Below are positions 2,401-24,811 of a stretch of DNA of 41,363 nucleotides, piece by piece; positions within the stretch are counted from its first letter, which is position 1, and each line of letters begins with the position of its first letter. Location of the stretch: positions 1 through 41,363 of the forward strand of contig JAFRFO010000086.1 of assembly GCA_017434295.1 (NCBI GenBank), written 5' to 3'. The notes beneath the pieces are model-generated. The model worked only from the letters and a program-made list of their open reading frames with translations. It searched no databases and was not told the origin of the DNA. A program made the translations under genes and the position numbers. Origin of the DNA: Clostridia bacterium. Its GTDB lineage: Bacteria > Bacillota > Clostridia > TANB77 > CAG-508.

Positions 2401-3000
2401 TTAATCTCTTTTTTGTTTATTTTTCTTTCCCTTAACAACCATTATTACAAAAATTGTTGTCATTATAAATAGTACTACTCCTACTATTATCCATCCTGTT
2501 TCAGTATGTGGTTCACTATATCTTGTCATACTGAAAGCTGCTTTTCTTTCTTCTTTTTGTTTTGCTTTTTGTGCCTCTTCTTCTGCCTTTTTCTTTTCCG
2601 TTTCTTTTCGAGCTGCTGCTTCTTCATCGCTAAGCCCTATATGCATTTCATTTTCTTCTCTTGTTACATTCATTGTATATATTTTTTTAGTTGTTTTATT
2701 TGATGCTGTAACTGTAACAGTTATCACATTTTTTCCTACTTCTAAGTTTGTATTTCCACTTACTTCATAGGTTGCTCCACTATCTTGTGTTTTTGCATAT
2801 ACTTGAATTTTTCTAATACTATATGGTACTGTTGTGTTATATTCTGTTATATCTGGCTTAAAGCCTTTAAAATCTTCTGGTGTATATCCTAAATTTGATA
2901 AGTTTGCATTGTCTGATGCTGCTTGAACTGGGTTTGTAAAACAGTAGATTAGAATTATACTTACTATAATTATTAATAATTTAAATATTAATCTTTTCAT
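2401..3000 (-). CDS. Membrane-anchored cadherin-like beta-sandwich domain protein
   Basis: 199 aa. Signal peptide (..NPVQA/AS), then a block LSNLGYTP..FKPDITEYNTTVP...GKNVITVTVTA..KKIYTMNVTR typical of the cadherin-like beta-sandwich family. Then a Lys/Glu-rich linker, a C-terminal TM helix and a KGKKNKQKRD tail. Confidence 0.65.
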   Translation of the reverse strand: MKRLIFKLLIIIVSIILIYCFTNPVQAASDNANLSNLGYTPEDFKGFKPDITEYNTTVPYSIRKIQVYAKTQDSGATYEVSGNTNLEVGKNVITVTVTASNKTTKKIYTMNVTREENEMHIGLSDEEAAARKETEKKKAEEEAQKAKQKEERKAAFSMTRYSEPHTETGWIIVGVVLFIMTTIFVIMVVKGKKNKQKRD

Positions 3001-6534: not shown

Positions 6535-6609
6535 ATTTGTTCCTTCTTTCTTTTAAACATTTTTAACCATTTTTCTTATTTAAAACAATTGTATAATATC
6601 ATTAAATTT

Positions 6610-6639
6610 AAAAAAGTACAAGCTTTTCTTGTACTTTTT
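6610..6639 (-). terminator. Rho-independent terminator (copy 1 of a duplicated cassette)
   Basis: GTACAAG (6616-6622) / CTTGTAC (6628-6634) with a 5-nt loop, flanked by an A-run and a T-run. In minus sense the stem is followed by TTTTTT. Lies between the end of the 6666..7413 gene and the rfbD start. Confidence 0.6.
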
Positions 6640-6665: not shown

Positions 6666-7413
6666 TTATAGTATATTTATAATATCTTCTAATAATTCCT
6701 CACTTGAAATCTGATTATTTTTATTTTCTGTAATAAAAACTATTTTTTTGTCATCATCATTAAAGTATTCATATGTTTGGTATTTATCCATTTTTTCAAA
6801 ATTATAGTCTAAAATATCTCCTGTTACATCATCTACAATATAACATAAACTTGATACAACTAATATAGTTTGAGCATCACTATTTATTGACTTTTCAACT
6901 GTCTTATCTAACTCAGATTGATTGTTTTTTTTATCAATTATTAGATATCCTTCGCTATTTACCTTATATTCAGAATTTAATTTTTCATTATTATTTAGTA
7001 AATTAATAATTTTATCTCTACTATCATTTTCAATCCAAATGCCTTTTTCTTGTAGATAATTATTATACATTATTTCATCTAATTCTTCAAATTTAGGTAT
7101 TTCTTTTTTTATCATACTACAAAATGCTACTTTAAATTTTAAGTCTGCTTTTACAGATAAAACTTTTCTACCATCATATTCTGTTTGAATTTCATATATA
7201 TTGCTATTCGCATTTAATCCATAATCTTTTTTTTAATTCATCTATGGTCACATCTTCTTTATATGATATTTGGTTTTTGTCAACTGTTATATAATTGTTT
7301 TCTTGTATTTCATTATTTTCCTTATTGTTGTTTTTATCAAAAACTTTCACCATTATTACACATATAATAATTAAAGTTAAAACAACCATAAATATCAATA
7401 TCTTTTTCTTCAT
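6666..7413 (-). pseudogene. Signal-anchored hypothetical protein split by a single-base frameshift in an A8 tract
   Basis: The ORFs 7204..7413 (69 aa, N-terminal TM helix) and 6666..7115 (149 aa) fuse into one 248-codon frame if one A is removed from the A8 run (T8 on the plus strand, 7227-7234). My translation across the junction reads ..DELKKDYGLNANSNIYEIQTEYDGRKVLSVKADLKFKVAFCSMIKKEIPKF.. with no stop. Confidence 0.6.
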
Positions 7414-7431: not shown

Positions 7432-10239
7432 TTATAAATTTTTTAACATTTCCAATGTTGCATTAATATATCTATTACAGAATTTATTATTGACAACATC
7501 TTGATGTCCTTTTACTTCATTATTAGGTAATTCTATCAAGGCAGATTTTGCAGATTTATTATTATTTCCTAAGGTATTTCTAGCCCAACCAATTAAATAT
7601 CCTGTTCCATATCTTTCAATTGATGAACCATCATTTTCAGGAAATTGTTTTCCATAATAATAACATATATCTCTATCTCCAATTAATTGTTGTGTCCATC
7701 CATGTAAATCCACTAAAACTGTCTGTCCATTCTTTGACTTATTTTGTATCATAAAATCCCTTAAATATCTTGCCTCACAAGCCATAAATGGTTCGCTTCC
7801 TGTATAGTTTCTATTTGAGTAATTAGCTTGAAAGTTTGTAGACCAACATCGATTTAAATCTACTCCTTTTTCACCGTTACTTTTTAAAGTTGTTCTACCT
7901 GGTCCATTATTAGTATTTCCATGTTTTACTCCATCTACATTTATAGCTGGGAAAATATATATTGTCCATTTATCAGATAAATCATAATCTTCATTTTTTA
8001 TTAATGTTTGATAAAATTTTTCAGCAATTTCAACTAATTCATATCCATCGTGTGGCCATAAATCTTCGAATCCATGTATTGCAAATGTGGCAAAAAATAC
8101 ATTTGGTCCATTTCCATATTTAAAATATTCTAAATCGGAACCTTTTTTATCTCCAACTTCCTTCAGTCCTGTTCTACCATAATAACCTGAGTAATAACTA
8201 ATTTCATTTCTTACTTCAAAATTCTTGGTTTGATTATCTAATATTTTATTATTAAATATAGCTTGAACAGTTATAGTATGTTTTCCTATTGAATAATTTG
8301 AGAAATCAATTGTTATATAATATCCTGGATTTGTATTAAATATTGTATTATCTCCATATCCCTTTACATAGTTTATAACATCTTGTCGATAATTTCTTTG
8401 TATATTACTCAATTCTATATTATCTATTAGTACCTTAAGTGTTGTTTCCTTTTTGTTTGTCATAATCCATCCACTAACATTATGAACTTTATTGCTTATT
8501 TTATCTTTAGGTATATCTATACATACTCTTGCTTTTGCATCTTGTATTTTGGGTACTATTTTTATTTCTATTGCTTCTAGTATATATGCTAATCCTTGTG
8601 TTCCTGCAATTTCTCCATCATAGCACCAATTCTGCCAGCCTATATCCTGTATGTAAGTTCTATATAATATTGAGTATTCTTCTGTTCCCTCTAGTTTTAA
8701 TCTTATAGCCTCTAATCTTAAGCTTCTTCCTTCTGTTCCTGCAATTTCTCCATTTTCTTTCCATTCCTGCCATCCTACATCCTGAACATGTGCCATATAT
8801 TTTATACTTATATTTTCTGCATTTGCTAATTTTATTTTTATTCCTTCAATTCTTTTGCCTTTTCCTATAGTTCCTGATAATTCATCCGAATCAACAAAAT
8901 CTTGCCATCCAAAATCTTCTACATGGCTACTATAAGAAATTCCTATATCTTTAGTAACGAAAAAACTAATACTTGTTTTTACTATACTAACCCCTTCAGA
9001 AATATCACAAATTTTAACTGTATGTTTACCAGTTTCTAATTTACTAGTTTCTATTAAAACGGAAAAACCTGGTAATGGATTTTCTATTTCTTTTCCATAT
9101 TCTTTAACTAGATCTATAACATCTTGTCTTTTTTTATATTTTATTAAATCTTTATTGATAGCTTTTTCGCTATCATCGATAAAGATTTGTAGTTCATCAT
9201 TGCTAACATTAGACATTTTCCACCCAGATATTTCTAGTTTTTTGGGACTGTTGATTGTAAGTATCTCTTTTGGGGTATCAATGCATATTCTAGCTTTTTT
9301 TACCTTTTTTATAACCCTTATTTGTATTCCTTCAAGTCTTAGGCTTTGCCCGCTTGTACCAGCAATTTGTCCTTCATCTCTCCAATCTTGCCAACCTATA
9401 TTTTCAACATATACTCTATATTGTATTGAAAAATCGTTTGATTTTTCTAATTCCATTACTATAGCTTCTAGCCTTAAACTTCTTTCTGAGGTTCCAGCCA
9501 TTTCTCCATTTTGTTTCCAGTCTTGCCATCCTATATTTTGTACATGTACTTTATATTTTATTTTTAAATTCGGATAACTATTTAATTGTATTTTTATTGC
9601 TTCTAATCTTTTGCCTTGACCTTCTGTACCTGATAGTTCTCCGTCTTTTTTCCACTCTTGCCATCCTATATCTTGTATATGTGTTTGATATGTTATTCCG
9701 ATTTTTCTTTCAATTATTTTTATTTCTATAGCTTCAAGTCTAAGACTTTGTCCTTCTGTTCCTGCCATTTCTCCATCTTTTTTCCATGCCTGCCAACCAA
9801 TATCTTGCACATGCGCTCTATACTCAATGCTATACTTTTCTGTATTTTCTAATTCTATCTTTATTCCTTCTAATCTTTTATTTTCTCCTTCTGTTCCTGA
9901 TATTTCACCATCATATTTCCAATTTTGCCATCCTATATTTTGTATGTGTGTTTGATATTTTATTCTTATGCTGTCTGAATTATTTATTTTTATGGAAATG
10001 CCTTCTAGTCTTTTACTTTCTCCTTCTGTTCCAGATAATTCTCCGTTTTCTTTCCATTCTTGCCAGCCTATATCTTGTACATGTGTTTTATAAGATACTT
10101 CTACAATGTTTTCTTTATTAGTAATATCATTTTCACTTTCCTCATCTTTTAGGCTCGCATCCTTTGCCAACGCAAAATTTTGTATGATATATATTAAAAT
10201 GATAATAAATGTAAAAATATATAATACTTTTTTATTCAT
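7432..10239 (-). CDS. Secreted ChW-repeat protein with a C-terminal M14-family metallocarboxypeptidase domain (probable peptidoglycan stem-peptide hydrolase)
   Basis: 935 aa. Signal peptide, then six ChW repeats (consensus Y..HVQDIGWQ.W...GE.AGT.G...RLEAI.I.L), an Ig-like module, three more ChW repeats and a second paralogous Ig-like module. The M14 domain has HGFE (HxxE), GVDLNRCW (compare the GxDxNRNF motif) and DLHGW. Confidence 0.85.
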   Translation of the reverse strand: MNKKVLYIFTFIIILIYIIQNFALAKDASLKDEESENDITNKENIVEVSYKTHVQDIGWQEWKENGELSGTEGESKRLEGISIKINNSDSIRIKYQTHIQNIGWQNWKYDGEISGTEGENKRLEGIKIELENTEKYSIEYRAHVQDIGWQAWKKDGEMAGTEGQSLRLEAIEIKIIERKIGITYQTHIQDIGWQEWKKDGELSGTEGQGKRLEAIKIQLNSYPNLKIKYKVHVQNIGWQDWKQNGEMAGTSERSLRLEAIVMELEKSNDFSIQYRVYVENIGWQDWRDEGQIAGTSGQSLRLEGIQIRVIKKVKKARICIDTPKEILTINSPKKLEISGWKMSNVSNDELQIFIDDSEKAINKDLIKYKKRQDVIDLVKEYGKEIENPLPGFSVLIETSKLETGKHTVKICDISEGVSIVKTSISFFVTKDIGISYSSHVEDFGWQDFVDSDELSGTIGKGKRIEGIKIKLANAENISIKYMAHVQDVGWQEWKENGEIAGTEGRSLRLEAIRLKLEGTEEYSILYRTYIQDIGWQNWCYDGEIAGTQGLAYILEAIEIKIVPKIQDAKARVCIDIPKDKISNKVHNVSGWIMTNKKETTLKVLIDNIELSNIQRNYRQDVINYVKGYGDNTIFNTNPGYYITIDFSNYSIGKHTITVQAIFNNKILDNQTKNFEVRNEISYYSGYYGRTGLKEVGDKKGSDLEYFKYGNGPNVFFATFAIHGFEDLWPHDGYELVEIAEKFYQTLIKNEDYDLSDKWTIYIFPAINVDGVKHGNTNNGPGRTTLKSNGEKGVDLNRCWSTNFQANYSNRNYTGSEPFMACEARYLRDFMIQNKSKNGQTVLVDLHGWTQQLIGDRDICYYYGKQFPENDGSSIERYGTGYLIGWARNTLGNNNKSAKSALIELPNNEVKGHQDVVNNKFCNRYINATLEMLKNL
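8557..8943 (-). repeat. Coding tandem array of three ChW repeats
   Basis: Residues 433-561 of the 935-aa protein. The first unit is divergent (HVEDFGWQDF). Confidence 0.8.
9313..10101 (-). repeat. Coding tandem array of six ChW repeats (about 43-aa units)
   Basis: Residues 47-309 of the 935-aa protein. The GWQ.W and RLE(A/G)I anchors recur six times. Confidence 0.85.
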
Positions 10240-10266
10240 TTTATATAATATCCCTTTCTATTTTTC

Positions 10267-11040
10267 TTATAATTGTTCAGCAAAACCTTTTTCTAATTTT
10301 CTAAATATAGCATATCCTATACCAAAAAATGCTATAGCTAATACTAATGCTATACCTAAACTTACAAAATTTGGTGTTGTTTTTTCATAAAAAATTGCTC
10401 TATATCCTTCAATTAAATATGACATTGGATTTAGTTTTAATAGCCATTGAAATGATGCTGGTACATCATTTATTGAATATACTATTGGAGTTGCATAAAA
10501 CAATAATTGCATAAACACCCCCAATAAATGTATTAAATCTCTAAAATAAACTGATAAACTTGATACTATAAATGCTATTCCTAGTGATAAAATATATTGA
10601 ATTGCAAGTATAACAATAAACCATAGTATATTTATAGATAGTCCAATTCCACTAATTAAAACAAATCCTAATATTATTATTGTTGAAATTAAAAAATTAA
10701 CTCCCTCACTTGTAACTAATGATATAGGTAGTATCTCTCTTGGAAAATATACTTTTTTTAATATATTCCCATTATCAATTACAACTGCTGCTCCTCTTAA
10801 TACAACACTTGAAAAATATTGCCATGGAATTAATGCACAACACAAATAAACTGCATAATTCTCTATATTACTTCTTAATATTATTTGGAAAACTAAAGCA
10901 TATACTGCTATTTGTAAAAGTGGATTTATAAATGACCATAATACTCCTAAAAATGAATTTTTATATTTTCCACCAACGTCTTTTTTTATATTTGTTTTTA
11001 ATAATTCTCGATAATTATATAAATCTTTTGCAATTTTCAT
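10267..11040 (-). CDS. ABC-2 type polysaccharide / teichoic-acid export permease (TagG/Wzm-like)
   Basis: 257 aa, six predicted TM helices, ABC-2 pattern (KYKNSFLGVLWSFINPLL...). The start overlaps the ATPase stop by 1 nt (TAATG). Confidence 0.85.
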   Translation of the reverse strand: MKIAKDLYNYRELLKTNIKKDVGGKYKNSFLGVLWSFINPLLQIAVYALVFQIILRSNIENYAVYLCCALIPWQYFSSVVLRGAAVVIDNGNILKKVYFPREILPISLVTSEGVNFLISTIIILGFVLISGIGLSINILWFIVILAIQYILSLGIAFIVSSLSVYFRDLIHLLGVFMQLLFYATPIVYSINDVPASFQWLLKLNPMSYLIEGYRAIFYEKTTPNFVSLGIALVLAIAFFGIGYAIFRKLEKGFAEQL

Positions 11041-11807
11041 TACAATGTCTCCTTTAAATATTCTTCTATAACTTCTTCTGGATTTCCATCCATTTTTATT
11101 ACTCCATTACTTAACCATATGGTTCTTGTACAAAATTCCTTAACTGTATTCATGCTATGTGTAACAAAAACCATAGTTTTCCCCTGTTCTTTAAGTTCTT
11201 TCATTTTTGATATACACTTTTCTTGAAAGTGTTGATCTCCAACTGCTAATATTTCATCTACAAGTAAAATATCTGCATCAACATTGATTGCAACAGCAAA
11301 AGCTAATCTCATATACATTCCAGAAGAATACGTTCTTACAGGATTATCTATATAAGATCCTAATTCTGAAAATTCAATTATGTCATTTAATCTATCATCT
11401 ATTTGCTTTTTTGTTAAGCCAAAAATTGATGCATTAAAATATATATTCTCTCTACCTGAAAAATCCGGGTGAAAACCTGCCCCTAATTCTAAAAGAGATG
11501 TTAATTTCCCATATGTTTCTATTTTACCACTATTAGGATAAATAATTTTTGTCATTAATTTTAATAATGTTGATTTACCGCTTCCATTTACTCCTATTAA
11601 AGCAACTGCTTCTCCATTATTAATTGTTAAATTTATATCTTTTAATACAATTCTTTTTTCTTTTTTATTTCTATTCCAAAATAGAAGTTTTTCCTTTAAG
11701 CTATTAGCTTTGTCCATATATATATTAAAAGTTTTACTAACATCTTGTACAATTATTCTTTTCTCTTTGCTATTTTGCATTTTTGACTTTCCTTTCATTT
11801 TTAACAC
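11040..11807 (-). CDS. ABC exporter ATP-binding protein (TagH/Wzt-like, no C-terminal carbohydrate-binding extension)
   Basis: Walker A GVNGSGKST, signature YSSGMYMRLAFA, Walker B ILLVDE. The real start is probably the ATG at 11780 (MQNSKEK..), which has an AAAGGAAAG Shine-Dalgarno. Confidence 0.9.
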   Translation of the reverse strand: MLKMKGKSKMQNSKEKRIIVQDVSKTFNIYMDKANSLKEKLLFWNRNKKEKRIVLKDINLTINNGEAVALIGVNGSGKSTLLKLMTKIIYPNSGKIETYGKLTSLLELGAGFHPDFSGRENIYFNASIFGLTKKQIDDRLNDIIEFSELGSYIDNPVRTYSSGMYMRLAFAVAINVDADILLVDEILAVGDQHFQEKCISKMKELKEQGKTMVFVTHSMNTVKEFCTRTIWLSNGVIKMDGNPEEVIEEYLKETL

Positions 11808-11844
11808 ATATAATTATTACCTTTTTATCATATCATTAAACAAT

Positions 11845-11875
11845 AAAAAGTACAAGCTTTTCTTGTACTTTTTTT
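11845..11875 (-). terminator. Rho-independent terminator (copy 2 of the duplicated cassette)
   Basis: Same GTACAAG-CTTTT-CTTGTAC hairpin as at 6616-6634, flanked by A5 and T7 runs. Lies between the cadherin-like gene end (11883) and the ABC ATPase start. Confidence 0.6.
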
Positions 11876-11882
11876 ATGAATT

Positions 11883-12557
11883 TTAGTGTTTTCCTTTTGT
11901 TTTTCCTTTTAGTATTACTATTATGAAAAATAGTAATACTAAAATAATAACTATTATACTTCCAATTATAATAAACACATTTGAATTTGACTCTTTATTT
12001 TCTGCAATTTCTTCCTTTTTTGAATTTTCTGTTTCTATTGTGTTAGTATTTACTTCTTTTGTTTCTTCTATTTTATTTGATTCTATTAGAGTCTTATTCT
12101 CGTCTGTATTATTACTGCTGTTATCATTAGCAACTATTAGTTTTATGATATACGTTCTTGTTGAACCATTTTCAGCTGTTACATCTATTCTATATTCGTT
12201 TTTATCTTTATTGATTTTTATATTTCCACTTCCATTTATTTTTGCTTTATTGTTACTTGTACTTGCTTTAATATTTATTTCATTAGATTTTACTTCTTCT
12301 TTTATAGAATATTCTAATGTTTGTTTATCAAACTCTGGTGTTAATGTATAGCCTTCTATTTCAAGTTCTGATAGATAATTATCAGAAGATTTTATATCTG
12401 TTGAATTATGTTCTTTTTCTTGTTCTTTTATTTGTTCTTGGGCTTGTTTATCTGCTTCTTCATCTGTTAAATCAGCATAACTAGCAAATATACTTGTAAC
12501 ATTTGATAAAACAACTATTAAAGTAATAATCCAAATATTTAAAATTTTATTTTTCAT
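11883..12557 (-). CDS. Membrane-anchored cadherin-like beta-sandwich domain protein (paralogue in architecture of 2401..3000)
   Basis: 224 aa. Signal peptide, then LSELEIEGYTLTPEFDKQTLEYSI....INGSG..I...KNEYRIDVTAENGSTRTYIIKL. Then an Asn/Glu-rich linker, a C-terminal TM helix and a KGKTKGKH tail. Confidence 0.65.
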   Translation of the reverse strand: MKNKILNIWIITLIVVLSNVTSIFASYADLTDEEADKQAQEQIKEQEKEHNSTDIKSSDNYLSELEIEGYTLTPEFDKQTLEYSIKEEVKSNEINIKASTSNNKAKINGSGNIKINKDKNEYRIDVTAENGSTRTYIIKLIVANDNSSNNTDENKTLIESNKIEETKEVNTNTIETENSKKEEIAENKESNSNVFIIIGSIIVIILVLLFFIIVILKGKTKGKH

Positions 12558-12583
12558 TTTTCCATCCTTCTTAATTCTAATTT

Positions 12584-14833
12584 TTACCTACGAAGATACT
12601 GAGATGGCATAAATGCTTGCCTTCCATCTGATAGCATTACTCTAACCCAATTATAGCCATCAATATTATTATATAATCCTTCGTTTATAACAGTTAAACT
12701 TGTTCCATCGGCTAATGCTGTTATTCTATCTACCTTTGTTGTTGGTCCAACCCTAACATAGCAACCACTTCCATCAGCTGTTTTTACATATGCTGTATAA
12801 TTACAATTTATAACATCTGATACTTGTTGTAAATATGATCCTGACATAAATCCAACTGTTCCATCATTTAATACAACTTTTTGCCAGTTTGAGTTGATTC
12901 CTCTTTGAATTGATAATATTATTTCGCCATTTGAAACTAATCTTATAACACTGGAACTAGTATTGGCATCACTTCTTAAGTTTAAACCTCCATTTGCAAC
13001 TACTTTCACATTTATTGGTGTAGTTTCTGAATTATATGATGGCTGTGATGCATTATAACCTGCACTTTCGTATACTGGAATAATAAATGTAAAATTAGAG
13101 TCTATTTTGTTAGTATTTGAATACATACTTCTAAGGGTTCTTGCTTCACTATAAGCACCTAATAAGTTTTGCATATATTGATGAGTGTATAGTGAGGTTC
13201 CATTAGTTGAATCTATATCAAATTTGTTTTGATATAATGTATTTTGATAATTTTCTAACCAGTTCTTTTTACAAAAGCTTATTCCACCTTCTATGGCTTT
13301 TTGCATTGAGTCCCATCCATAAGATTTTGCTGTAGCTAATGCATTTGAATATATAGCATCATATCCATTGCCTGAAGCTCCAATATTGAATGGATTATAA
13401 TATGTTCTTCCATCTCCACCATTCATTCCTTTTCCAATTGTAGTTCCTGAATATCCTTGTTCTTGTATCAATCTAGCAATTATATAGTATGGATTTACTC
13501 TTGTATTAATACATGCATTGTTTATATCATTTGCATAGTTTTGTAAGAATGATCCATTTACTTTTGACTGTATTCCATCTAATGATACTGAATCAGATGA
13601 ATATGTATTTAAATCTAAGAACTGAAATACATTGGTATCATCTAAGAAATTTCTTGAATCCATATAGTATGCTATTGCTTTTTCTGATGCACAATACCAA
13701 CCACTGTCATATAATTTTGTTCCACATATACTGCATACCCATTCTCCTGAATAACTTGATGGAACTAAATTTCTTGAGTGTACTGCATATTCTCCTCTTA
13801 CCGCTTGATCTAATGTCAAACCAGTATATAACAGATTAAACTCCCAATTTGGATGTGCATTCATTAATTGTTGTATTTTTTCTTTATATCCTGGATATCG
13901 AGTTGTATCTATTGATAATGCATTTCCACTTTTTACAATTCTAATTTGAACTGCCTCTACTCTTAAGCATTGTCCTTCTGTTCCTGCTGTTTCTCCATTA
14001 GAAACCCAATTTTGCCAACCAATATCTTGTACATGTGCTCTATACTCGATTTTATAACCTGTAACACCTTCTAATTTAATTCTAATGGCTTCCATTCTCT
14101 TATTTTCCCCTGTTGTACCAGCAATTTCGCCATCTTGTTTCCAATCTTGCCATCCTATATTTTGTATATGGACTTGATATTTTATATGTTGTGAGGCTGT
14201 TTCATCTTCTAATTTAAGTTTTATTGCTTCCATTCTTAATGATTGTCCTTCGGTTCCTGCTGTTTCTCCACTTGCCACCCAATTTTGCCAACCTATATCT
14301 TGAACATGTGAACTATATTGCAAATCCGGTGTATTCTTTTGAAGTTTTATTTCAATTGCTTCTAATCTTAAACTTTGACCTTCTGTTCCTGCGATTTCGC
14401 CATCTTTTCTCCATTCTTGCCACCCTATGTCTTGCACATGTGTTCTATACATTATAGAATAATCTGATGTATTTTCTAAAACAATTTTAATAGCTTCTAA
14501 CCTTAAACTTTGGCCTTCTGTTCCTGCCATTTGTCCATTGCTTTTCCAGTCTTGCCACCCAATATTTTGTATATGTACTTGATATTTTATATTAATATTA
14601 TTATTGTTTAATTTTATATTTATTCCTTCTAATCTTAAGGCTAGATTTGTTGTTCCTGAAAGACTTCCATTGCTAACATAACCTTGCCACCCCACATCTT
14701 GTACATGAGATCTATAGCTTACAGTTAATCCTCCTCCACTAGATGTATTCTCCGCTTTTACTTGATAACTATACGAAAAAATAATATTAGTTATTAATAA
14801 CAAGATAAGTGCTACTGATACTATTTTTTTCAC
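12584..14833 (-). CDS. Secreted ChW-repeat peptidoglycan hydrolase: GH73-type N-acetylglucosaminidase plus two SH3-like domains
   Basis: 749 aa. Signal peptide and six ChW repeats. The central domain has IIARLIQEQGYSG (catalytic Glu region) and YYNPFNIGASG (compare the GH73 YNxFGI block). Two C-terminal SH3_3-like modules (..LNLRSDANTSS..WQKVVL.DGTVGFM..YL and ..CYVRVGPTT..WVRVMLSDGRQAFMPSQYL). Confidence 0.85.
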   Translation of the reverse strand: MKKIVSVALILLLITNIIFSYSYQVKAENTSSGGGLTVSYRSHVQDVGWQGYVSNGSLSGTTNLALRLEGINIKLNNNNINIKYQVHIQNIGWQDWKSNGQMAGTEGQSLRLEAIKIVLENTSDYSIMYRTHVQDIGWQEWRKDGEIAGTEGQSLRLEAIEIKLQKNTPDLQYSSHVQDIGWQNWVASGETAGTEGQSLRMEAIKLKLEDETASQHIKYQVHIQNIGWQDWKQDGEIAGTTGENKRMEAIRIKLEGVTGYKIEYRAHVQDIGWQNWVSNGETAGTEGQCLRVEAVQIRIVKSGNALSIDTTRYPGYKEKIQQLMNAHPNWEFNLLYTGLTLDQAVRGEYAVHSRNLVPSSYSGEWVCSICGTKLYDSGWYCASEKAIAYYMDSRNFLDDTNVFQFLDLNTYSSDSVSLDGIQSKVNGSFLQNYANDINNACINTRVNPYYIIARLIQEQGYSGTTIGKGMNGGDGRTYYNPFNIGASGNGYDAIYSNALATAKSYGWDSMQKAIEGGISFCKKNWLENYQNTLYQNKFDIDSTNGTSLYTHQYMQNLLGAYSEARTLRSMYSNTNKIDSNFTFIIPVYESAGYNASQPSYNSETTPINVKVVANGGLNLRSDANTSSSVIRLVSNGEIILSIQRGINSNWQKVVLNDGTVGFMSGSYLQQVSDVINCNYTAYVKTADGSGCYVRVGPTTKVDRITALADGTSLTVINEGLYNNIDGYNWVRVMLSDGRQAFMPSQYLRR
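13937..14725 (-). repeat. Coding tandem array of six ChW repeats
   Basis: Residues 37-299 of the 749-aa protein. Shares 15-30-nt near-identical DNA stretches (for example CCTTCTGTTCCTGC on the plus strand) with the arrays in 7432..10239. Confidence 0.85.
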
Positions 14834-14962
14834 TTGTATTCCCCCTTTTTTTCTTTAAGTATTTCTATTTAAAGTTTTCCATTTATATTTTATCATTTGT
14901 TTTTCCATTTTACAATATTTTTAGACATTTTTTTTATAACAATTTTTTACAGCACTAAAATA

Positions 14963-14997
14963 GAGTTTTTAAAAGCAATTATATCTTTTAAAAACTC
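14963..14997 (-). terminator. 13-bp AT-rich stem-loop after the GT2 gene
   Basis: GAGTTTTTAAAAG (14963-14975) / CTTTTAAAAACTC (14985-14997). In minus sense it is followed by TATTTT. Separates the glycosyltransferase block from the ChW-GH73 gene. Confidence 0.45.
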
Positions 14998-15009
14998 CTA
15001 TTTTTCAGT

Positions 15010-15990
15010 TTATATTTTACTATAAAACCATAATGCAATTTTTCCTAACTTCATTTTATTTAATATCATAAACATTTTGGTAACGATTCTTACACTAAGT
15101 ATATCTCCATCTGGTTTTAAAAAACCAATCATTTTATTTTTCTTATAATCTGGAAATTTTTCTTCTAACCAATTAAATAATTTATCATATTCTTCACTTA
15201 TTATTTTATATGGTAATTTTTTTGTAGAAAAAGTTAATAACCAAACGGCATACCTTGTAAAGTATGTTTTTATTAAATCATAGTTTTTGTCTAATAATTC
15301 ACTTTCTTTTAGCATTTTATAACAACTATTAAGCAATTCATAAACTTGCAAATTTCTAATATCTTTTTGCTTAGAATTAGAGACACTTGTTGTATTATAA
15401 AACCAGTTATATCCTATGTAATCTATTATTTTTATTTTATCACTAGCCAACAATGCTTTTAGATTAAAGTAAACATCTTCTCCTAAATTTACATTTAAAA
15501 ACTCAATATTATTCTTTATCAAAAATTCTTTTTTATATATTTTTGCCCATGGTGCCATAATTAGAAACTTATTCCATTGCTTATCTACTAATTTCATTTG
15601 TTTTAGTATTTTTTGATTATCATTAATTCTTCTATATCCACCTATTACAACATCATAATCATTTTCTTCAATTTCATTTATAAATGTTTCAATATAGTTT
15701 TTGTCAATATAATCATCATTATCAATAAACATTATATATTGTCTATTTGCTTTTTTTATACTTTCATTTCTTGTTATTGCAACTCCCTTATTATCTTGTT
15801 CAATAGCTATTATTTTGTTAGGATATTTTTTCTTATAATCATTTATTATTTCTTGTGATTTATCATTTGAACCGTCATTTACAATCATTATTTCATAATT
15901 TGAATATGTTTGATTTAAAATACTATCTATACATTTGCCAATAAATTTTTCTGAATTATATACTGGAACTATTAATGTTACCTTTTTCAT
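15010..15990 (-). CDS. Family 2 glycosyltransferase
   Basis: 326 aa. VTLIVPVYNSEKFIGKCIDSILNQTY..IMIVNDGSNDKS and a FIDNDD (DxD) motif. ATGA overlap with the upstream flippase gene. Confidence 0.85.
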   Translation of the reverse strand: MKKVTLIVPVYNSEKFIGKCIDSILNQTYSNYEIMIVNDGSNDKSQEIINDYKKKYPNKIIAIEQDNKGVAITRNESIKKANRQYIMFIDNDDYIDKNYIETFINEIEENDYDVVIGGYRRINDNQKILKQMKLVDKQWNKFLIMAPWAKIYKKEFLIKNNIEFLNVNLGEDVYFNLKALLASDKIKIIDYIGYNWFYNTTSVSNSKQKDIRNLQVYELLNSCYKMLKESELLDKNYDLIKTYFTRYAVWLLTFSTKKLPYKIISEEYDKLFNWLEEKFPDYKKNKMIGFLKPDGDILSVRIVTKMFMILNKMKLGKIALWFYSKI

Positions 15991-17231
15991 TTTTCTATCT
16001 CCCTCGTAAAAATTACTTTTAGTTTTAAATTAGTATAAACAGTATATATTAGAAATTGCAATGACATTATTGCTAAATATGCCCATATAGCTCCATCTAT
16101 ATTCCATGTTTTAGTTAATATATCAGAAATAATTAAGGCAAATATTGATATTATTACATAAATAATAAATTGTGAAAATGTTTCTCTAACAGTTGTTAAG
16201 ACTGAAGAATATATTATACCGATTGTATATAATGTTGATGATATTATAATGATTAATAATCCTATTTTATACATGCTTAAGTCAATTCCATATATTAGTC
16301 CTAATAACTGTGTGCCTATAAAATAGGCTAAAATTGATGATATAATTCCTATACAAGCTATTGCTAATATCAATTTCATTATAATCTTTTTCAGTTGTTT
16401 TAGATTTCTTTCTTCATATACTTTTAATATCTGATTTAAAAATGGATGTATCAAAAATTGAGCAACTAATCCTATAACTGTTGCTGGCATTACAATTATT
16501 CAGAATATGGTTTGTATATCATTTCCTAAATATGTATCTATAGAATATTTAGGAGCATTTAATATGTATAATCCTAAAAATGCTATGGCAAATGTAGTAA
16601 AGCCAAATCTAAATATTTTTAAGACATTTTTCCAGTTTACCTTTTTAGAATAATCAATATGTGTTTTAGATTTTTTTAAGTCAAATAGTATAATAATTAT
16701 TATCCAAATAATTATAGCAGATATTATTGATAAAATAACATTTTTAGATATAATATCAACTACTATAAATGCACAAATAGACACTATTGATTTTATAAAC
16801 AATGATTTACCAACTATCTCTAATTTTTCATTCTTTTGTAAAATACCATATATTACTTCACTAAATGCTTCTAAGGATTTATAAAATGTTAATAATAAGA
16901 AGATAATTGTTTTATAAGCATCATATTTTCTTATTAAGCAAAATGCTAGTACTAAAATATTCATTAATGCAACAGTTATTATCCTATTAATTATGTATTC
17001 TTTATTTGTTATAGATTTATCTGGTTCGGTTACTTGATAAATCCTTCCGGCATATATACCTATAACATATATTATACATGCTGTTGCATAACCTATTGTA
17101 AATACTCCAGCATTTTCTATTCCATTTATTCTAGTAACTGCTATCATAAAAAATAAAGAATTAAATGCATTTATCCCTGTTCCTAATATATTCCAAATAA
17201 AATTCTTTTTAAATTGTATATCTTTATTCAT
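15987..17231 (-). pseudogene. Wzx-type (MOP superfamily) polysaccharide / lipid-linked sugar flippase interrupted by one in-frame TGA
   Basis: ORFs 16500..17231 (243 aa) and 15987..16490 (167 aa) are in the same frame. The junction reads ..GNDIQTIF-TGA-IIVMPATVIGLVAQF.. with the TGA at 16500-16502. The combined 414 codons carry about 12 TM helices, the normal size and shape for this family. Confidence 0.75.
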
Positions 17232-17302
17232 TATTTTTCCTCATACCTATTTTATATAATTATATATTACTTATTATTTATCCTCATACTTTATATATTT
17301 AT

Positions 17303-18091
17303 TTATACATTATTTGTCTTTACAGCACTCTTATAAAACTTCATTAAGAATTTAGCAATTGGTGTTGGCCAAAATTTTTTAAACATTGTAAAATCTTCTT
17401 CCAGTCTAACATTATTTTGAATTAAATTTGATGTTTCTGAATCTTCATGTATTCTATGCAACATTATCTCTTTATTAATATATAGAAATGCATAATTCTT
17501 TTGTGCAAAATCATACCAAGTATCCCAATCCAAATCACATTTCAAGTCTATTTTATATGGTTTTTTTCCTGTAATGTGAGTATTAATTGTTACACATGGA
17601 CAGCATATTGCTGAACCAAATTTTAATGCAAACATTTTAGCTTTTTTACTATTTCCATCTTTTTTTAGTTTTGATAATAAAAATTTTTTTATTTTTAAGT
17701 TTTTAGTTAGTGGTACTATTTCTCCATTTTTAATCTCTCTATAATCTCCAAATGCAATAATAAAATCTTTATTTTTGTTTATTTCATTTACTATTTCTTC
17801 TAAATAATTAGTATTGTATATATCATCTTGATGTGCAACAGTAACATATTTAGTTTTAGCTTTGCTAACACCAAAATTCCAATCTTGTCCTATTCCACTT
17901 TCTCCTTCATTAATAAATAGTTCTAAATTATGTTTTTTAGCAATTTCTTTTATAAAAGTATTTGGCGTAGATGTAGCAATTATTATATTGCTTTTTACAC
18001 TTTGGTTCTCTAAAGATTTTATACATTCTTCTAAATATTTAGATTCTTTATAGGCACAAACAACAAATGTATGATTATTAAATTCTGGCAT
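17303..18091 (-). CDS. Family 2 glycosyltransferase
   Basis: 262 aa. HTFVVCAYKESKYLEECIKSLENQ start and AHQDD (DxD-like) motif. Confidence 0.8.
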   Translation of the reverse strand: MPEFNNHTFVVCAYKESKYLEECIKSLENQSVKSNIIIATSTPNTFIKEIAKKHNLELFINEGESGIGQDWNFGVSKAKTKYVTVAHQDDIYNTNYLEEIVNEINKNKDFIIAFGDYREIKNGEIVPLTKNLKIKKFLLSKLKKDGNSKKAKMFALKFGSAICCPCVTINTHITGKKPYKIDLKCDLDWDTWYDFAQKNYAFLYINKEIMLHRIHEDSETSNLIQNNVRLEEDFTMFKKFWPTPIAKFLMKFYKSAVKTNNV

Positions 18092-18093
18092 AT

Positions 18094-18462
18094 TTATTCC
18101 TTCCTTTTTTCTTTTTCACTTTTTTCTTTTTCACTTTTTTCAATTTTTTCTTTTAATATCCCTAATTCTTGTGTTAATTTAACAATCATTTTGTTTTGTT
18201 TTGTTAAAACTGTTGATATATGAATAATATATGCGCCTAATATTATTATTGCAAACAAAAACATTAATGCAGGTGGATAATATACATTAAATTTATTAGC
18301 AAATATTGTAATAATATCAGGGAAAACAGATACTACAAGTATCACAAAACTAGCAAACAACCATAAAATTGAATATTTTTCATCTAATTTATTTTTCTTT
18401 ACTAGGTTTATTATAAATAATATTAAAATTATAGAAAAAATTATTGCAAATTTATATATCAT
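18094..18462 (-). CDS. Small three-TM membrane protein, DUF2304 / GacJ-like
   Basis: 122 aa. Three hydrophobic helices then a charged coiled tail (..KEKIEKSEKEKSEKEKRKE). Size, topology and position directly after a polyprenyl-phosphate GT2 domain match the DUF2304 family as I recall it. Confidence 0.55.
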   Translation of the reverse strand: MIYKFAIIFSIILILFIINLVKKNKLDEKYSILWLFASFVILVVSVFPDIITIFANKFNVYYPPALMFLFAIIILGAYIIHISTVLTKQNKMIVKLTQELGILKEKIEKSEKEKSEKEKRKE

Positions 18463-18472
18463 TTCTTTCCTC

Positions 18473-20599
18473 CTATTTTTTTAACCCCATTAATAATATT
18501 GATAGTGTTACTTTAAACATATAACTAATTGATTTTAATGGAGATATAGATGATACCCCTGTTTCTCTTTGTTTCATTTCAACTGGTATTTCCTTAACAG
18601 TATAACCTTTTTTTACTATACTCATATTTGTACATGGTTCAGGATAATCGTATGGATATTCTTCAACAAATTCTTCAATAATGTTTTTATTTACTGCTCT
18701 ATATCCAGAAGTAGTATCATATATTTTAACTTTTGTCATTTTTTTAATTATATATGAAATAAGATTTATTCCTAACATTCTAAATACAGTTTGATCATAG
18801 CTTGTTTTTTTAACAAATCTTGAACCAATAACCATATCATTTCCTTGGTTTATTTCATCTATTAAATCCTTTAAATATCTAGGATCATGTTGACCATCAC
18901 CATCTATTTGTATAGCTATGTCGTAATTGTTATTTTTTGCATACCTATATCCTGTTTGTACTGCTCCTCCTATTCCCAAATTATTAGGAGCGTCTAAAAC
19001 TATCGCTTTTGTTTTTAATGCATTTTTTAAAGTATTATCTTTAGAACCATCATTAATAACTATAACATCACATTTTTCTATTTTTTGTTCATACACACTA
19101 TTTACAACCTTTTCTATTGCTGCTTCTTCATTATAAGCTGGAATTATTACTAGTGTTTTTGGATTTTCTTTATTTAATTCATTATTTTTTTTGCAATATT
19201 TTATATTTTTTTGTTTAATTAAGGTTTCAGCAAGTACTAATATAGTGAAATATTCTGTCATAAAGCATGGATAAAAATATCTTTGATCTTGTGATGATAT
19301 CAGAAAAATATATGTTCCTATATTTAATAACATAGGTAATAATAAGAATATATATCTATAATTTTTTGTTTTTATCCATACAATTAATACTGCTATCATG
19401 GAAATAATTATTGCAACTGCTGGTCTATATATAAGCTCATACATTCCATGATTTTCTAAAGTTCCTATTGAATAATCCCATAATCTTTCATGCATATCTT
19501 CAAGAATTGGATAATTATCATATACTCCATTTGTAGATTCAGACAAATAGCCATTACTCAATATTATACTATGCATTGGTGCTTTTTCTTCAATACTCCA
19601 CCAAATCGAATTTACATTAATAAAATGTTTTACAATTGTCATTGGATCTTTAGTTGCGTATTTCATAAATATATCGTTAAACTTTTTATTTCCTTCATCT
19701 GTTCCTAGAATTTGTTCATTATATTTTGAACTAAATAGTATTGGTGTACCATTATATGCATCATAATCTTTTTTCCAATCTTCTACACTATAAATAGTAT
19801 TTAAAAATTCCTTTTCTTCTTGTTCCAATTCAATATCTGTATTTAGTAATGCTCCCATACAGTAAACTTTTGTCGAGTCTAATACTCCCCCAACACTTGC
19901 CGTTTTTGTTTTGTCTCCCCATATCCACTTAGGTAAAGTCATTAGTATCAAGATTGTTATAAATGAAATAATTAGTGTCAAAGATTGTTTTAGTTTTTTA
20001 TTGTTTTTTAAATTTAATATAAATAATAATAAAAACATAAATAATCCAATAGGCATTCCATTATGTCTTAATTTCATTATAGCTGCTGCCGAAATGGAAA
20101 TCATTATCATTTCAAATGTAGAATATTTATACTTTTCTTTAATTCCTATATACACAAATACCAAAATAGCAAGTATGCTATATGAATACAAAATATCCTT
20201 CCATAATACAATTGAGTATATAAAATTTAAGGGTAAAATACATATAACAATAGTAAATAGTATTTGAAATACTTTATTTTTAGTTGTATCATTGTACTTT
20301 CTTACTTTTTTACAAGCATAAGTCCATATAAATGTGAAAGTAATTATTTGAAATAACTCTGGTACCCATATTCCGCCCAGTTTAGCTAAGTTTCCGATTA
20401 CAAATGAATGAAAAATAGGATGAGCATCTCTATATAAATTATCTTTAGCTTGTGAAATTTGATCTACAATATCACTTGTTAGTAATCCTGGAAAAAAAGA
20501 TAATAAAGCAACAATAAATACAACAGCTACTATTAGAAAAATAATAATATCTGTTTTTTCAATTTTAATTTTCTTTGTGTTAATGTTTTTCTTCTTCAT
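18473..20599 (-). CDS. Fusion protein: N-terminal polytopic membrane domain (DUF6020 / GT-C-like) plus C-terminal polyprenyl-phosphate glycosyltransferase (GT2, GtrB/GacI/DPM1-like)
   Basis: 708 aa. Residues about 1-465 hold about 10 TM helices, an SDIVDQISQ....YRDAHPIFHS first-loop motif and a soluble loop of about 170 aa (225-393). Residues 481-708 have LVIIPAYNEE, VINDGSKDNT, IQIDGDGQHDP and a YDTTSGYRA block typical of Und-P/Dol-P sugar synthases. Confidence 0.8.
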   Translation of the reverse strand: MKKKNINTKKIKIEKTDIIIFLIVAVVFIVALLSFFPGLLTSDIVDQISQAKDNLYRDAHPIFHSFVIGNLAKLGGIWVPELFQIITFTFIWTYACKKVRKYNDTTKNKVFQILFTIVICILPLNFIYSIVLWKDILYSYSILAILVFVYIGIKEKYKYSTFEMIMISISAAAIMKLRHNGMPIGLFMFLLLFILNLKNNKKLKQSLTLIISFITILILMTLPKWIWGDKTKTASVGGVLDSTKVYCMGALLNTDIELEQEEKEFLNTIYSVEDWKKDYDAYNGTPILFSSKYNEQILGTDEGNKKFNDIFMKYATKDPMTIVKHFINVNSIWWSIEEKAPMHSIILSNGYLSESTNGVYDNYPILEDMHERLWDYSIGTLENHGMYELIYRPAVAIIISMIAVLIVWIKTKNYRYIFLLLPMLLNIGTYIFLISSQDQRYFYPCFMTEYFTILVLAETLIKQKNIKYCKKNNELNKENPKTLVIIPAYNEEAAIEKVVNSVYEQKIEKCDVIVINDGSKDNTLKNALKTKAIVLDAPNNLGIGGAVQTGYRYAKNNNYDIAIQIDGDGQHDPRYLKDLIDEINQGNDMVIGSRFVKKTSYDQTVFRMLGINLISYIIKKMTKVKIYDTTSGYRAVNKNIIEEFVEEYPYDYPEPCTNMSIVKKGYTVKEIPVEMKQRETGVSSISPLKSISYMFKVTLSILLMGLKK

Positions 20600-20628
20600 T
20601 TTTACTTCCTTTCGTAATTATTTACGTT

Positions 20629-22431
20629 TTATTCAATGCTTAAGAATTTTTCAACACTTTCTTTTGCTTTTTTAGAATATTCTTTCTTCCATTCTTTATA
20701 TAATTCTAAAATCTTTTCTCTGTTTTCTAAATCATATTTTATTTTATTATATATTTCCATTATATCATCTTCTTTAGTAACAACTAAATATTTTTCTAAT
20801 TCAGTTCCTGTAAAATAATGATGATTATCTCCTGTTATACATACTGTTCCCAGTTCTAAACTTTCTAATGGAATTAGCGGTGCACATTCAGTAAATGTAA
20901 CATATACATTTATATCATTATTTGCAATTCTTTTATATATTTCTTCTTTTGGTACATTTGTTTCTTCGCCTGTTAAATTAACTTTATATCTTCTACATAA
21001 TGTTGAAATCTTACTATTAATTGGTATGCAATCTAATTTAACATCTTCAAATAAACTTATAGCACTTATTTGATTATAAGTATTTTTTACCCATCTATCT
21101 CCTGATGAGTATAATCCAATTTTAAGAACTTTATTATCTTTGTTTTTTGGAATGTATTGTTCTTTATTTTCTATAATTACATCATTCATTAAGAAACTTG
21201 AATTATAACCTTTTGCTTTATAAAACTCATATAAACTCTTCTTAACAAAACAAAGTTCATCAACTTGTCCCCTTTCATATAAGTTAAGCATTATATTATG
21301 AACTTCCCAATCATAGCATTCAGATAATAAAGCATTACCACCATGTATTATTAATTTTACAATAATATCTGGTTTTATTTCTTTTAAAGATGTTATAATA
21401 TTTTCCCATCCATTAGCAAAAGCATTAAAAACAACCATTTTTTTACCTGCGTTGACTATTTCTTTAGAAATCATATATGCTTCTTTTTTTGTATACTGTT
21501 CTCTAATTTCTAATATATTATCTCCAAAAGTATATTTAGTTGAATTTTTTACTCCTATCCATTCTGGATGGCATATTGCAACATATTTTTCACTTTGTTT
21601 AGAAAGAGCTTGCTTGATTTTATTTACTCTCTTATTTCTATTAACATAAATAGAATATTTTATTGCCCATTTATGCACAAAATTCTGTATATTCCATTTA
21701 ATAGAGTTTTTAATATTTCCTATTTTATCAATTGATTTATTAATAAACTTTCCAAGCTTTGGTCCACATTTTCTATATATTCCAATTGTTCTTTTTTCTC
21801 CCTTACTTGTCCATGTTCCTTTAAACAAATGTACCATTCTTGTATTTTTAGTATATAATTTTTCAGAATAATCATAGCTAATTGGATAAAAATATTCTCT
21901 AGGATATATATATATATTTCCATCAAATAGTTTTACTCCATTTTCTAATGTTTTACATTCATATTTTTTTATGATATTTGTTATAATTATTGGATTGGTA
22001 TAATTGTAGATACTTTGTATATAAAAATGTTCTAGTTTATCATAATAATCTAATATCTCTTTTATATATTTATTATGTTTTTCCTTAACGCCTATTACTG
22101 CTGTTCCAAAATAGCCACTATCTTCATACCCCATAAACATATTTTTTTCTCTAATATCATCTATATCTTTAAGAATTTTTACATCTGTATCTAAATATAT
22201 ACCTCCTTCATTATATAAAGCATAAATTCTTGCATAATCACTTACAAAAGCCCATTTTTTATTTTCATAAGCTTCCTTTACGAAATTACATGAATTTATA
22301 TCGAAATTTTTTTCATTCCATTGAATTATTTCATAATCCGGTAATATTTTTTTCCATGTTTTTATACATTTTTTTACACTTGTTGGTAAAGGTTTTCCAC
22401 CAAACCAACAATAATGAATTTTCTTTTCCAT
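20629..22431 (-). CDS. Two-domain glycosyltransferase: N-terminal DXD sugar-binding (Gly_transf_sug / GT32-like) plus C-terminal GT-B (GT4-like) domain
   Basis: 600 aa. KIHYCWFGGKPLP...CIKTWKKILPDYEIIQWNEKNFD....GGIYLDTDV at the N-terminus. The C-terminal half ends in FTECAPLIPLESLELGTVCITG, which resembles the GT4 E-x7-E region. Confidence 0.7.
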   Translation of the reverse strand: MEKKIHYCWFGGKPLPTSVKKCIKTWKKILPDYEIIQWNEKNFDINSCNFVKEAYENKKWAFVSDYARIYALYNEGGIYLDTDVKILKDIDDIREKNMFMGYEDSGYFGTAVIGVKEKHNKYIKEILDYYDKLEHFYIQSIYNYTNPIIITNIIKKYECKTLENGVKLFDGNIYIYPREYFYPISYDYSEKLYTKNTRMVHLFKGTWTSKGEKRTIGIYRKCGPKLGKFINKSIDKIGNIKNSIKWNIQNFVHKWAIKYSIYVNRNKRVNKIKQALSKQSEKYVAICHPEWIGVKNSTKYTFGDNILEIREQYTKKEAYMISKEIVNAGKKMVVFNAFANGWENIITSLKEIKPDIIVKLIIHGGNALLSECYDWEVHNIMLNLYERGQVDELCFVKKSLYEFYKAKGYNSSFLMNDVIIENKEQYIPKNKDNKVLKIGLYSSGDRWVKNTYNQISAISLFEDVKLDCIPINSKISTLCRRYKVNLTGEETNVPKEEIYKRIANNDINVYVTFTECAPLIPLESLELGTVCITGDNHHYFTGTELEKYLVVTKEDDIMEIYNKIKYDLENREKILELYKEWKKEYSKKAKESVEKFLSIE

Positions 22432-22432
22432 A

Positions 22433-23818: not shown

Positions 23819-23868
23819 AATATTCCTCTTAGTAATAATTACCTTTAATATATATCATAATTCTACAT

Positions 23869-23898: not shown

Positions 23899-23986
23899 TT
23901 ATTTTTTACGAAAAATCTTTTATTAAAAAAACAAACTTTATATAAAATAGCATCATTATTATTAAAAAAATATATAAAATTATATG

Positions 23987-24805: not shown

Positions 24806-24811
24806 TCTTTC

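Follow-up and report, generated by a model that had tools for sequence, protein, structure and literature searches.

ChW-repeat wall hydrolases encoded inside a rhamnose-type wall-glycopolymer locus of a Clostridia bacterium: recurrent genomic coupling and a candidate ChW ligand

What do ChW repeats bind at the bacterial surface, and does the locus in which they are encoded name the ligand? The question is raised by a stretch of 41,363 nucleotides from a Clostridia bacterium (GenBank assembly GCA_017434295.1, contig JAFRFO010000086.1, positions 1 to 41,363; hereafter the window), where two genes for ChW-repeat proteins, one with an M14 peptidase domain and one with a GH73 glucosaminidase domain, lie among the genes of a rhamnose-containing wall polymer. 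ChW repeats (Pfam PF07538) are among the few common Gram-positive wall-anchoring repeats for which both a defined ligand and a solved structure are lacking; they occur on dozens of enzyme classes in abundant gut Firmicutes. The initial annotation of this DNA had stated that the ligand lacks an experimental definition, and a 2018 surfaceome review, in which ChW is reported from Enterococcus, Lactococcus and Streptococcus, likewise lists it as not determined (PMC5817068); a 2021 survey describes the function of ChW as unknown and guesses at a peptidoglycan-binding role in Enterococcus autolysins (PMC8051824). In a 2019 display study, a ChW-like lactococcal phage anchor did not fractionate with wall material released by lysozyme or mutanolysin. 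No paper linking ChW to rhamnose polymers was found in the literature searched.

Gene neighborhoods give a first clue: in many genomes, ChW genes lie beside genes for dTDP-L-rhamnose synthesis (rml), TagGH-type export or LCP ligases far above chance expectation. A profile of the window's 15 ChW repeats was run against one genome per species and returned at least 597 confirmed ChW stretches; the best 80 loci, with up to 10 kb of flank each, were used, and their open reading frames (ORFs) were searched with the window's own glycopolymer proteins. An rml or TagGH homolog was present within 10 kb in 39 of the 80 loci (24 with true rml, 15 with TagG/TagH) and some glycopolymer gene in 53, mostly at distances below 2 kb. 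Since the best 80 loci are the top matches to the window repeat and therefore favor relatives, mostly uncultured gut Clostridia, loci sharing a ChW ortholog (identity of 50% or more across 70% or more of the length) were merged into 35 groups; 13 of these have rml or TagGH within 10 kb, 14 when LCP and TagF are added, and 18 when glycosyltransferases are added as well. The two largest groups (23 and 10 ChW ORFs; 24 and 10 loci) share large loci in the same metagenome-assembled genomes (MAGs), for example L023 and L005, which are adjacent on one contig, and this makes 12 of 34 the more cautious count. As controls, 11 non-glycopolymer proteins from the window flanks were taken through the same pipeline and had homologs in 0/80 loci (95% upper bound 3.7%); at this background the binomial p is 2e-10 for 13/35 and 2e-9 for 12/34, and the latter still reaches 7e-5 at a background of 10%. 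The neighborhood enrichment on which the initial annotation had staked its proposal is thus observed; positive and strong, it supports the view that ChW proteins are functionally tied to wall-polymer loci of the rhamnose type, and a strong and recurrent genomic coupling of ChW-tagged extracellular enzymes to such loci is established.

At least eight distinct gene orders, from Clostridia, Erysipelotrichaceae and Lachnospiraceae, put a ChW gene right beside rml, TagG or LCP. ChW genes stand within the rml operon in L001 and L028 (rmlD, rmlA, ChW, a gene for a 240-aa protein, rmlC, rmlB) and in L025 (rmlC, ChW-CotH, rmlB), and at its edge in L050 (Wzx-like, GT2, ChW, ChW-CotH, rmlDACB) and in the Erysipelotrichaceae locus L067 (rmlB, rmlD, rmlC, ChW-GH25, ChW-C39-like). 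In the Lachnospiraceae locus L075, a ChW-YkuD gene is followed 4 nt downstream by tagG, tagH, tagF and tagF; the Sarcina locus L027 reads ChW-GH73, ChW-Amidase_2, LCP; in C. disporicum (L020, L034) the genes for ChW-GH73, ChW-GHL10 and ChW-Amidase_3 adjoin an LCP gene; and L003 is a further case of immediate adjacency of ChW to polymer genes. Weaker linkage, at 7-9 kb, was found in a Saccharibacteria MAG and in Enterococcus moraviensis.

Within the window itself, two predicted secreted peptidoglycan hydrolases, a GH73 glucosaminidase and an M14 peptidase of the stem-peptide type, are encoded inside the polymer locus, with the domain compositions that had first been read from the sequence; a 2019 review of wall hydrolases (PMC6403190) already lists both architectures. 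The ChW-M14 gene (7432-10239, minus strand) encodes 935 residues: a signal peptide, six ChW repeats (nt ~9301-10104), an Ig-like spacer, three further ChW repeats (~8545-8946), a second Ig-like spacer and the M14 domain (~7435-8172). Pfam recognizes nine ChW stretches (E 1e-152, 496 bits against a cut-off of 22) and Peptidase_M14 (PF00246; 53.7 bits against 21.6), and the M14 motifs, read by eye, are intact: HxxE (HGFE), the second histidine (DLHGW), NR (DLNRCW) and the glutamate (LIELP). With zinc ligands and catalytic glutamate in place and a score above the Pfam gathering threshold, the domain belongs to the M14 zinc carboxypeptidases; its matches to carboxypeptidases in the PDB are weak, and its presumed substrate is the peptidoglycan stem peptide. 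The ChW-GH73-SH3 gene (12584-14833, minus strand) encodes 749 residues: a signal peptide, six ChW repeats (~13922-14728; E 5e-113, 369 bits against a cut-off of 22), a SagB/Atl-like GH73 domain (~13079-13705) and two SH3_3 domains (~12587-13006), the last also recognized by Pfam. Pfam GH73 (PF01832) gave no match to this protein at E ≤ 1e-3, and the domain is therefore regarded as a divergent member; residues ~376-585 match GH73 glucosaminidases of the PDB in phmmer (SagB, 6fxp/6u0o, E 5e-19; Atl, 7e-13; AtlE, 5e-10), and the catalytic glutamate aligns (IQEQG against LLETG in SagB), so that homology to the catalytic domain and its conserved glutamate together place it in GH73. The protein is not a SagB equivalog, since it matches the NCBIfam SagB model at 88, far under the cut-off of 425.

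The genes around them belong to a conserved segment of a locus for a rhamnose-containing wall glycopolymer, of the rhamnose-rich cell wall polysaccharide (Rha-CWPS) or teichoic-like type. The host is a gut bacterium of the Clostridia, uncultured and low in GC; the GC content of the window is ~22-31% in stretches of 2 kb, and nearly all its genes are on the minus strand. Along the direction of transcription, Pfam assigns an LCP ligase (32798-31542), an Alg14/Alg13-like pair, a GT4, two GT2, an O-antigen-ligase-like membrane protein (25938-27368), a split GT4, a GT2, a TagF-like CDP-glycerol glycerophosphotransferase (23818-22433), a DXD glycosyltransferase, a membrane GT2, a DUF2304 protein, a GT2, a Wzx-like protein (15987-17231) and a GT2 (15990-15010); this glycosyltransferase and assembly block (15010-32798), for which gene calls on the near-identical contig L081 were also used, is followed by ChW-GH73-SH3, a cadherin-like gene (12557-11883), tagH-like and tagG-like exporter genes, ChW-M14, the 240-aa gene (7413-6666), rmlD, rmlA, rmlC and rmlB (6534-3042), and a second cadherin-like anchored protein (3000-2401). 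The rmlDACB, TagF-like and LCP genes bear out the rhamnose/glycerophosphate context that had been proposed, and the two ChW genes do flank the ABC exporter between rmlDACB and the glycosyltransferase/TagF/LCP block. The locus is found again, at 99.7% identity, on a metagenome scaffold of 51.6 kb and in gut metagenomes that were assembled independently, bovine and goat samples among them; among the best 80 ChW loci, its nearest relatives are uncultured Clostridia MAGs.

The ChW repeats of both proteins, ~45 residues long with a conserved GW and the invariant residues Y, GWQ, GT and E of the family, are arranged in triplets (3+3+3 in the 935-aa protein, 3+3 in the 749-aa protein), and the repeat number is a multiple of three in 96 of 109 ChW ORFs of other loci; a triplet organization was suggested by Sullivan et al. 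(2007), as cited in PMC5817068. An AlphaFold2 model of one triplet (residues 46-178 of the 935-aa protein) forms an all-beta single domain (pLDDT 95, pTM 0.89), and the triplet is thus the predicted structural unit of ChW. Against the PDB, ChW had no sequence match and the triplet model no Foldseek match (best E 0.32); in BFVD, the model matches the C-terminal modules of uncultured Siphoviridae lysins (TM 0.77-0.89, 14-36% identity). A tblastn search of 50,697 phage records with a ChW triplet returned two unannotated fecal fragments only, even at E ≤ 10, and the distribution of phage hosts was consequently uninformative as a clue to the ligand.

What the linked proteins share is ChW and not one enzyme class; they carry GH25, GH73, Amidase_2, Amidase_3, YkuD, M14, C39-like, GHL10, CotH or no catalytic domain at all. 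Among 58 ChW orthogroup representatives, the partner domains are GH25 (8), GH73 (7), CotH (4), Amidase_2 (3), YkuD (3), M14 (3), Amidase_3 (2), C39-like (2) and transglutaminase-like (2), and, once each, levansucrase, cellulase, GHL10, trypsin and leucine-rich repeat; the 58 include GH68 and GH5 domains, and mannanases of C. acetobutylicum and one amylase carry ChW as well. A single module is therefore common to many unrelated extracellular enzymes, as in an anchor system, and its presence on amylase, mannanase, levansucrase and cellulase argues for a general surface anchor or retention module. The linked orthogroups include the GHL10 protein, several proteins without catalytic domain and all four ChW-CotH groups, which lie in or beside rml operons (4/4), one of them between rmlC and rmlB. 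Secreted CotH kinase-family proteins with 5-9 ChW repeats were located at L025:15583-18255, L050:8564-10546, L060:7805-10561 and L028:466-3657; their substrates may be the wall polymer or wall proteins.

In the reading preferred here, ChW triplets would form an all-beta, non-covalent wall-anchor unit that keeps extracellular enzymes at the wall by attaching to the rhamnose-containing polymer that the locus produces. The bound feature would most plausibly be a conserved one, such as the rhamnan backbone, and glycan-strand cutting and stem-peptide trimming would thereby be confined to wall that carries or receives the polymer. There are precedents for genes of anchor-bearing proteins beside those for synthesis of their ligand, in the cwp/PSII locus of C. 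difficile and in the csaB-sap-eag cluster of B. anthracis. That the locus polymer is the ChW ligand is put forward tentatively, at somewhat less than an even chance; a shade more speculative is the wider proposal that ChW triplets are an unrecognized third anchor of the SLH/CWB2 kind, which would bind the encoded rhamnan or rhamnose-glycerophosphate polymer, would have a wide distribution in gut Clostridia, Erysipelotrichia and Lactobacillales, and would place peptidoglycan hydrolases, L,D-transpeptidases and secreted CotH kinase-like enzymes where the wall bears the polymer. The initial annotation had gone directly to the polymer as ChW receptor; the functional link stands, by virtue of the enrichment, whereas the step from link to ligand is one that we infer.

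Several observations weigh against the polymer as ligand. No rml or TagGH lies within 10 kb in 22 of the 35 merged groups. A second sample consisted of eight short ChW-only proteins, picked by the size of the host contig alone from a homology search whose best 120 listed matches were all short ChW-only proteins; two were linked (an Agathobacter contig with five ChW genes beside GT2, ManC and LtaS-like genes, and L090, with the order GT2, DUF2304, GT2, GLF, ChW), one was ambiguous, and five were unlinked (Paenibacillus, Riemerella, Sellimonas, an amylase-bound ChW, and a contig whose neighboring genes looked actinobacterial to us). ChW extends to Paenibacillus and to diderms (Riemerella and, by the sources' naming, Planctomycetes and Nostocaceae), and the repeats are conserved across phyla at 60-79% identity to the query repeat; set against hypervariable polymer loci, such conservation would fit a universal ligand, for example peptidoglycan, at least equally well. 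A binding experiment for canonical ChW was not found in the literature searched. In a 2023 paper, binding of the cell-wall-binding domain (CBD) of the Lacticaseibacillus phage CL1 lysin, which HHpred labels ChW, rises after polymer extraction with trichloroacetic acid, and CBDs of the CL1 and Lc-Lys type are reported to bind peptidoglycan with amidated D-Asp cross-bridges (PMC10610939); the similar Lc-Lys CBD binds the D-Asn cross-bridge according to Regulski (2013), as cited in that paper. The initial annotation had itself named undiminished binding after removal of the secondary polymer as the outcome that speaks against its proposal, and the extraction result is of this kind, yet it comes from a remote relative. 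By eye, the CL1 CBD consists of three degenerate, in-register Y-x-x-H...GW...W repeats; hhalign aligns it weakly with ChW triplets (E 7e-4, probability 26%), Pfam ChW does not match it even at E ≤ 10, and it is at best a remote relative of ChW as judged by these comparisons, so that its binding data count against the ligand hypothesis but do not settle it.

These data speak for peptidoglycan itself (stem peptide, cross-bridge or glycan) as the ChW ligand, with the locus polymer masking the wall and thereby limiting hydrolase binding, and with gene clustering reflecting co-inheritance and co-regulation. That wall teichoic acid shuts out autolysins in this way is established for Atl of S. aureus and LytF of B. 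subtilis, and the lysins that share the ChW triplet fold at 14-19% identity make remote homology plausible; but the missing Pfam match and the virtual absence of canonical ChW from phage genomes mean that the lysin experiments concern a distant relative, and the specificity of a CBD fold often shifts. ChW-GH73 moreover already possesses, in its two SH3_3 domains, the usual peptidoglycan binders; ChW proteins other than hydrolases (CotH, GHL10, ChW-only) are embedded in rml or LCP loci as well, and ChW also anchors the polysaccharide-active enzymes listed above, which have no role in peptidoglycan. On balance, peptidoglycan as the ligand is considered somewhat less likely than the polymer. The linkage could also follow the enzymes and not their anchor, with hydrolases, L,D-transpeptidases and the like opening or remodeling the wall for polymer export and LCP attachment and with ChW as a generic anchor for an unrelated ligand. 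As a further point against a polymer ligand, 22 of the 24 orthogroups with a recognized peptidoglycan-active domain are linked versus 14 of the 34 others, which may mean that linkage tracks hydrolase function, in a table that is biased because the domain seeds were drawn from linked loci. The resemblance of the GH73 domain to SagB, a processor of nascent glycan strands, agrees with this account, as does the gene for a small membrane-anchored protein that follows each hydrolase gene (240-aa after ChW-M14, cadherin-like after ChW-GH73), an arrangement that recalls the membrane partners SpdC of SagB and ActH of LytH; in B. subtilis, lytD and lytC adjoin tag/tua genes. CotH-ChW proteins and ChW proteins without a catalytic domain are, however, tightly linked as well, and an enzyme-driven linkage appears quite unlikely. 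It is very improbable that there is no functional coupling at all, and that ChW genes merely reside in a variable cell-envelope island by descent or horizontal co-transfer, with an enrichment produced by sampling related genomes; the relatedness of the best 80 loci and the shared loci of the two largest groups would allow it, but the enrichment persists after ortholog merging, at least eight gene orders occur in several families or phyla, ChW genes are inserted into the rml operon itself, and none of the control genes from the window flanks is co-conserved.

Binding of the locus polymer by ChW is thus kept as the preferred reading, and the cross-genome linkage names rhamnose-type wall polymers as the candidate ligand class. 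If it is true, it would explain the placement of autolysins and surface enzymes in these bacteria, yield a new display anchor, and flag the ChW-CotH proteins of rml operons as possible polymer-modifying enzymes; if ChW binds peptidoglycan instead, the linkage still makes hydrolases an integral part of wall-polymer assembly loci.

The exporter between the two ChW genes had been called TagGH-like. It consists of an ABC-2 permease of 257 residues (TagG/Wzm-like; 10267-11040, minus strand; Pfam ABC2_membrane, E 5e-25) and an ATPase of 255 residues with a nucleotide-binding domain only (TagH/Wzt-like; 11040-11807, minus strand; Pfam ABC_tran), which overlaps the permease start. Although the top NCBIfam models of the ATPase are indeed TagH, the scores (234 and 212 bits) stay below the equivalog cut-offs (538 and 320), and the permease matches galactan Wzm best (70 bits against 380), with all Wzm/KpsM-like matches under their cut-offs. 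The label therefore holds for a permease/ATPase pair of this general kind and not for an equivalog of the wall-teichoic-acid exporter; to judge from these scores, the pair is a putative glycopolymer exporter of the Wzm/Wzt class that is "TagGH-like" in function only.

Co-transcription of the ChW genes with their neighbors across gaps of 26-27 nt had also been proposed. The gap sizes are exact and make co-transcription plausible for two gene pairs only: a terminator-free gap of 27 nt separates the permease from the start of ChW-M14, and the gene that lies 26 nt downstream of ChW-GH73 is the cadherin-like gene (11883-12557, minus strand) and not the exporter. A search for RNA runs that cover the region found none. 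Three terminator-like hairpins, all on the minus strand, split the region into units, which argues against one long operon. One lies between the cadherin-like gene and tagH (11845-11873; RNA fold -12.6 kcal/mol, z -4.4); one, identical to it, between the 240-aa gene and rmlD (6611-6639; -17.3 kcal/mol, z -8.8); and an AT-rich one directly 3' of the last GT2 gene (14950-15010; -17.6 kcal/mol, z -5.1), upstream of a promoter-like site of ChW-GH73 that was identified by consensus match only (14887-14915, minus strand; TTGTAA, a 17-nt spacer, TG-n-TAAAAT). The likely transcription units are ChW-GH73 with the cadherin-like gene; tagH, tagG, ChW-M14 and the 240-aa gene; and a unit beginning with rmlDACB. 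The two identical 29-nt hairpins are each held by a copy of a 63-nt intergenic repeat with 83% identity, upstream of rmlD (6577-6639) and upstream of tagH (11811-11873); the two copies may represent a duplicated terminator/promoter module that sets off cassettes within the locus.

The gene after ChW-M14 (6666-7413, minus strand) encodes a conserved membrane-anchored protein of 240/248 residues. Its lineage-restricted family has 157 members of ~250 aa, with an N-terminal transmembrane helix and an alpha/beta ectodomain; Pfam returned no match for the protein, and its AlphaFold2 model (pLDDT 84) had no fold match in the PDB. Homologs lie 0-218 nt downstream of the ChW gene in 27 of the 80 loci, almost always directly 3' of genes of the ChW-M14 type, and the protein may be a partner or regulator of the M14 peptidase. 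The gene is frameshifted solely in the window, by an extra A at 7227 (A8 in place of A7); since A7 and an intact gene are found in contigs L081-L083 and in four public gut-metagenome runs, the extra A is a window-specific mutation or an assembly error. The cadherin-like protein of 224 residues (Pfam Cadherin-like, E 1e-4) comprises a signal peptide, a beta-sandwich, a charged linker and a C-terminal transmembrane anchor; homologs come after ChW genes in L012 and L017, and the window holds a paralog after rmlB (2401-3000, minus strand). In the SH3_3 region of ChW-GH73, positions 12926-13088 carry 11 substitutions in ~160 nt relative to L081 and the runs, between nearly identical flanks; the window differs from runs X1, X2 and X4 throughout this patch, a second contig of X3 has the window letters at 8 of the 11 sites, and the patch looks like the result of recombination.

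Two other genes of the locus are interrupted. The GT4 gene (24812-25937, minus strand) is split into an N-terminal ORF of 68 aa (25731-25937) and a C-terminal ORF of 247 aa (24812-25555), and since public contigs are identical at 24812-25937 the split occurs in the population. The 414-aa Wzx-like membrane protein is broken into ORFs of 243 and 167 aa by a stop at 16502 (G>T on the transcribed strand), where L081 and the gut-metagenome runs X1-X3 keep a sense codon. On its 5' side, the locus is preceded by genes for a Cthe_2159-type carbohydrate-binding protein and VTC/DUF4956 proteins (39959-41182 and 38455-39481, minus strand); the sole sizeable plus-strand gene encodes a DUF1064 protein (33092-33448). 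An Rfam scan of the window found no RNA family.

Among characterized systems, S. aureus SagB, Atl and AtlE share with ChW-GH73 the homologous catalytic domain and its aligned glutamate, as well as an adjacent membrane-protein gene; SagB, however, is membrane-anchored, works with SpdC and has neither ChW nor SH3, whereas the 749-aa protein is predicted to be secreted. The CBDs of Lc-Lys and phage CL1 resemble ChW triplets in their three degenerate repeats C-terminal to a peptidoglycan hydrolase and in the name given by HHpred, and differ in lacking a Pfam ChW match and in having peptidoglycan, not a secondary polymer, as reported ligand. The locus as a whole resembles in content the rhamnose-rich CWPS loci of streptococci (rgp/GAC/SCC), enterococci (epa) and lactococci (cwps), with rmlABCD, an ABC-2 exporter, many GT2 and GT4 genes, a Wzx/Wzy-like second branch, glycerophosphate addition and an LCP ligase. 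In S. mutans, the rhamnopolysaccharide with its glycerophosphate decoration directs the autolysin AtlA; we know of no hydrolase genes inside the streptococcal, enterococcal or lactococcal loci, whose autolysins use Bsp-like, LysM or other repeats, whereas here the hydrolase genes are embedded in the locus and carry ChW. The SLH domains of B. anthracis (csaB-sap-eag), which bind a pyruvylated secondary cell wall polymer (SCWP), offer a parallel in that three repeats make up one pseudo-threefold binding unit and ligand-modifying genes adjoin those of anchored proteins; SLH has a helical fold, the ChW model an all-beta one, and Pfam found no pyruvyl transferase in the window. CWB2 (PF04122) of C. 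difficile belongs to another repeat family with another fold, is associated with an S-layer protein that is absent here, and binds PSII by experimental demonstration, whereas binding of the polymer by ChW is a proposal; yet its repeats, too, come in threes and anchor varied surface enzymes non-covalently, and its genes, too, cluster with those for polymer synthesis, export and LCP ligation. ChW and its polymer would form a pair comparable to SLH with pyruvylated SCWP or CWB2 with PSII.

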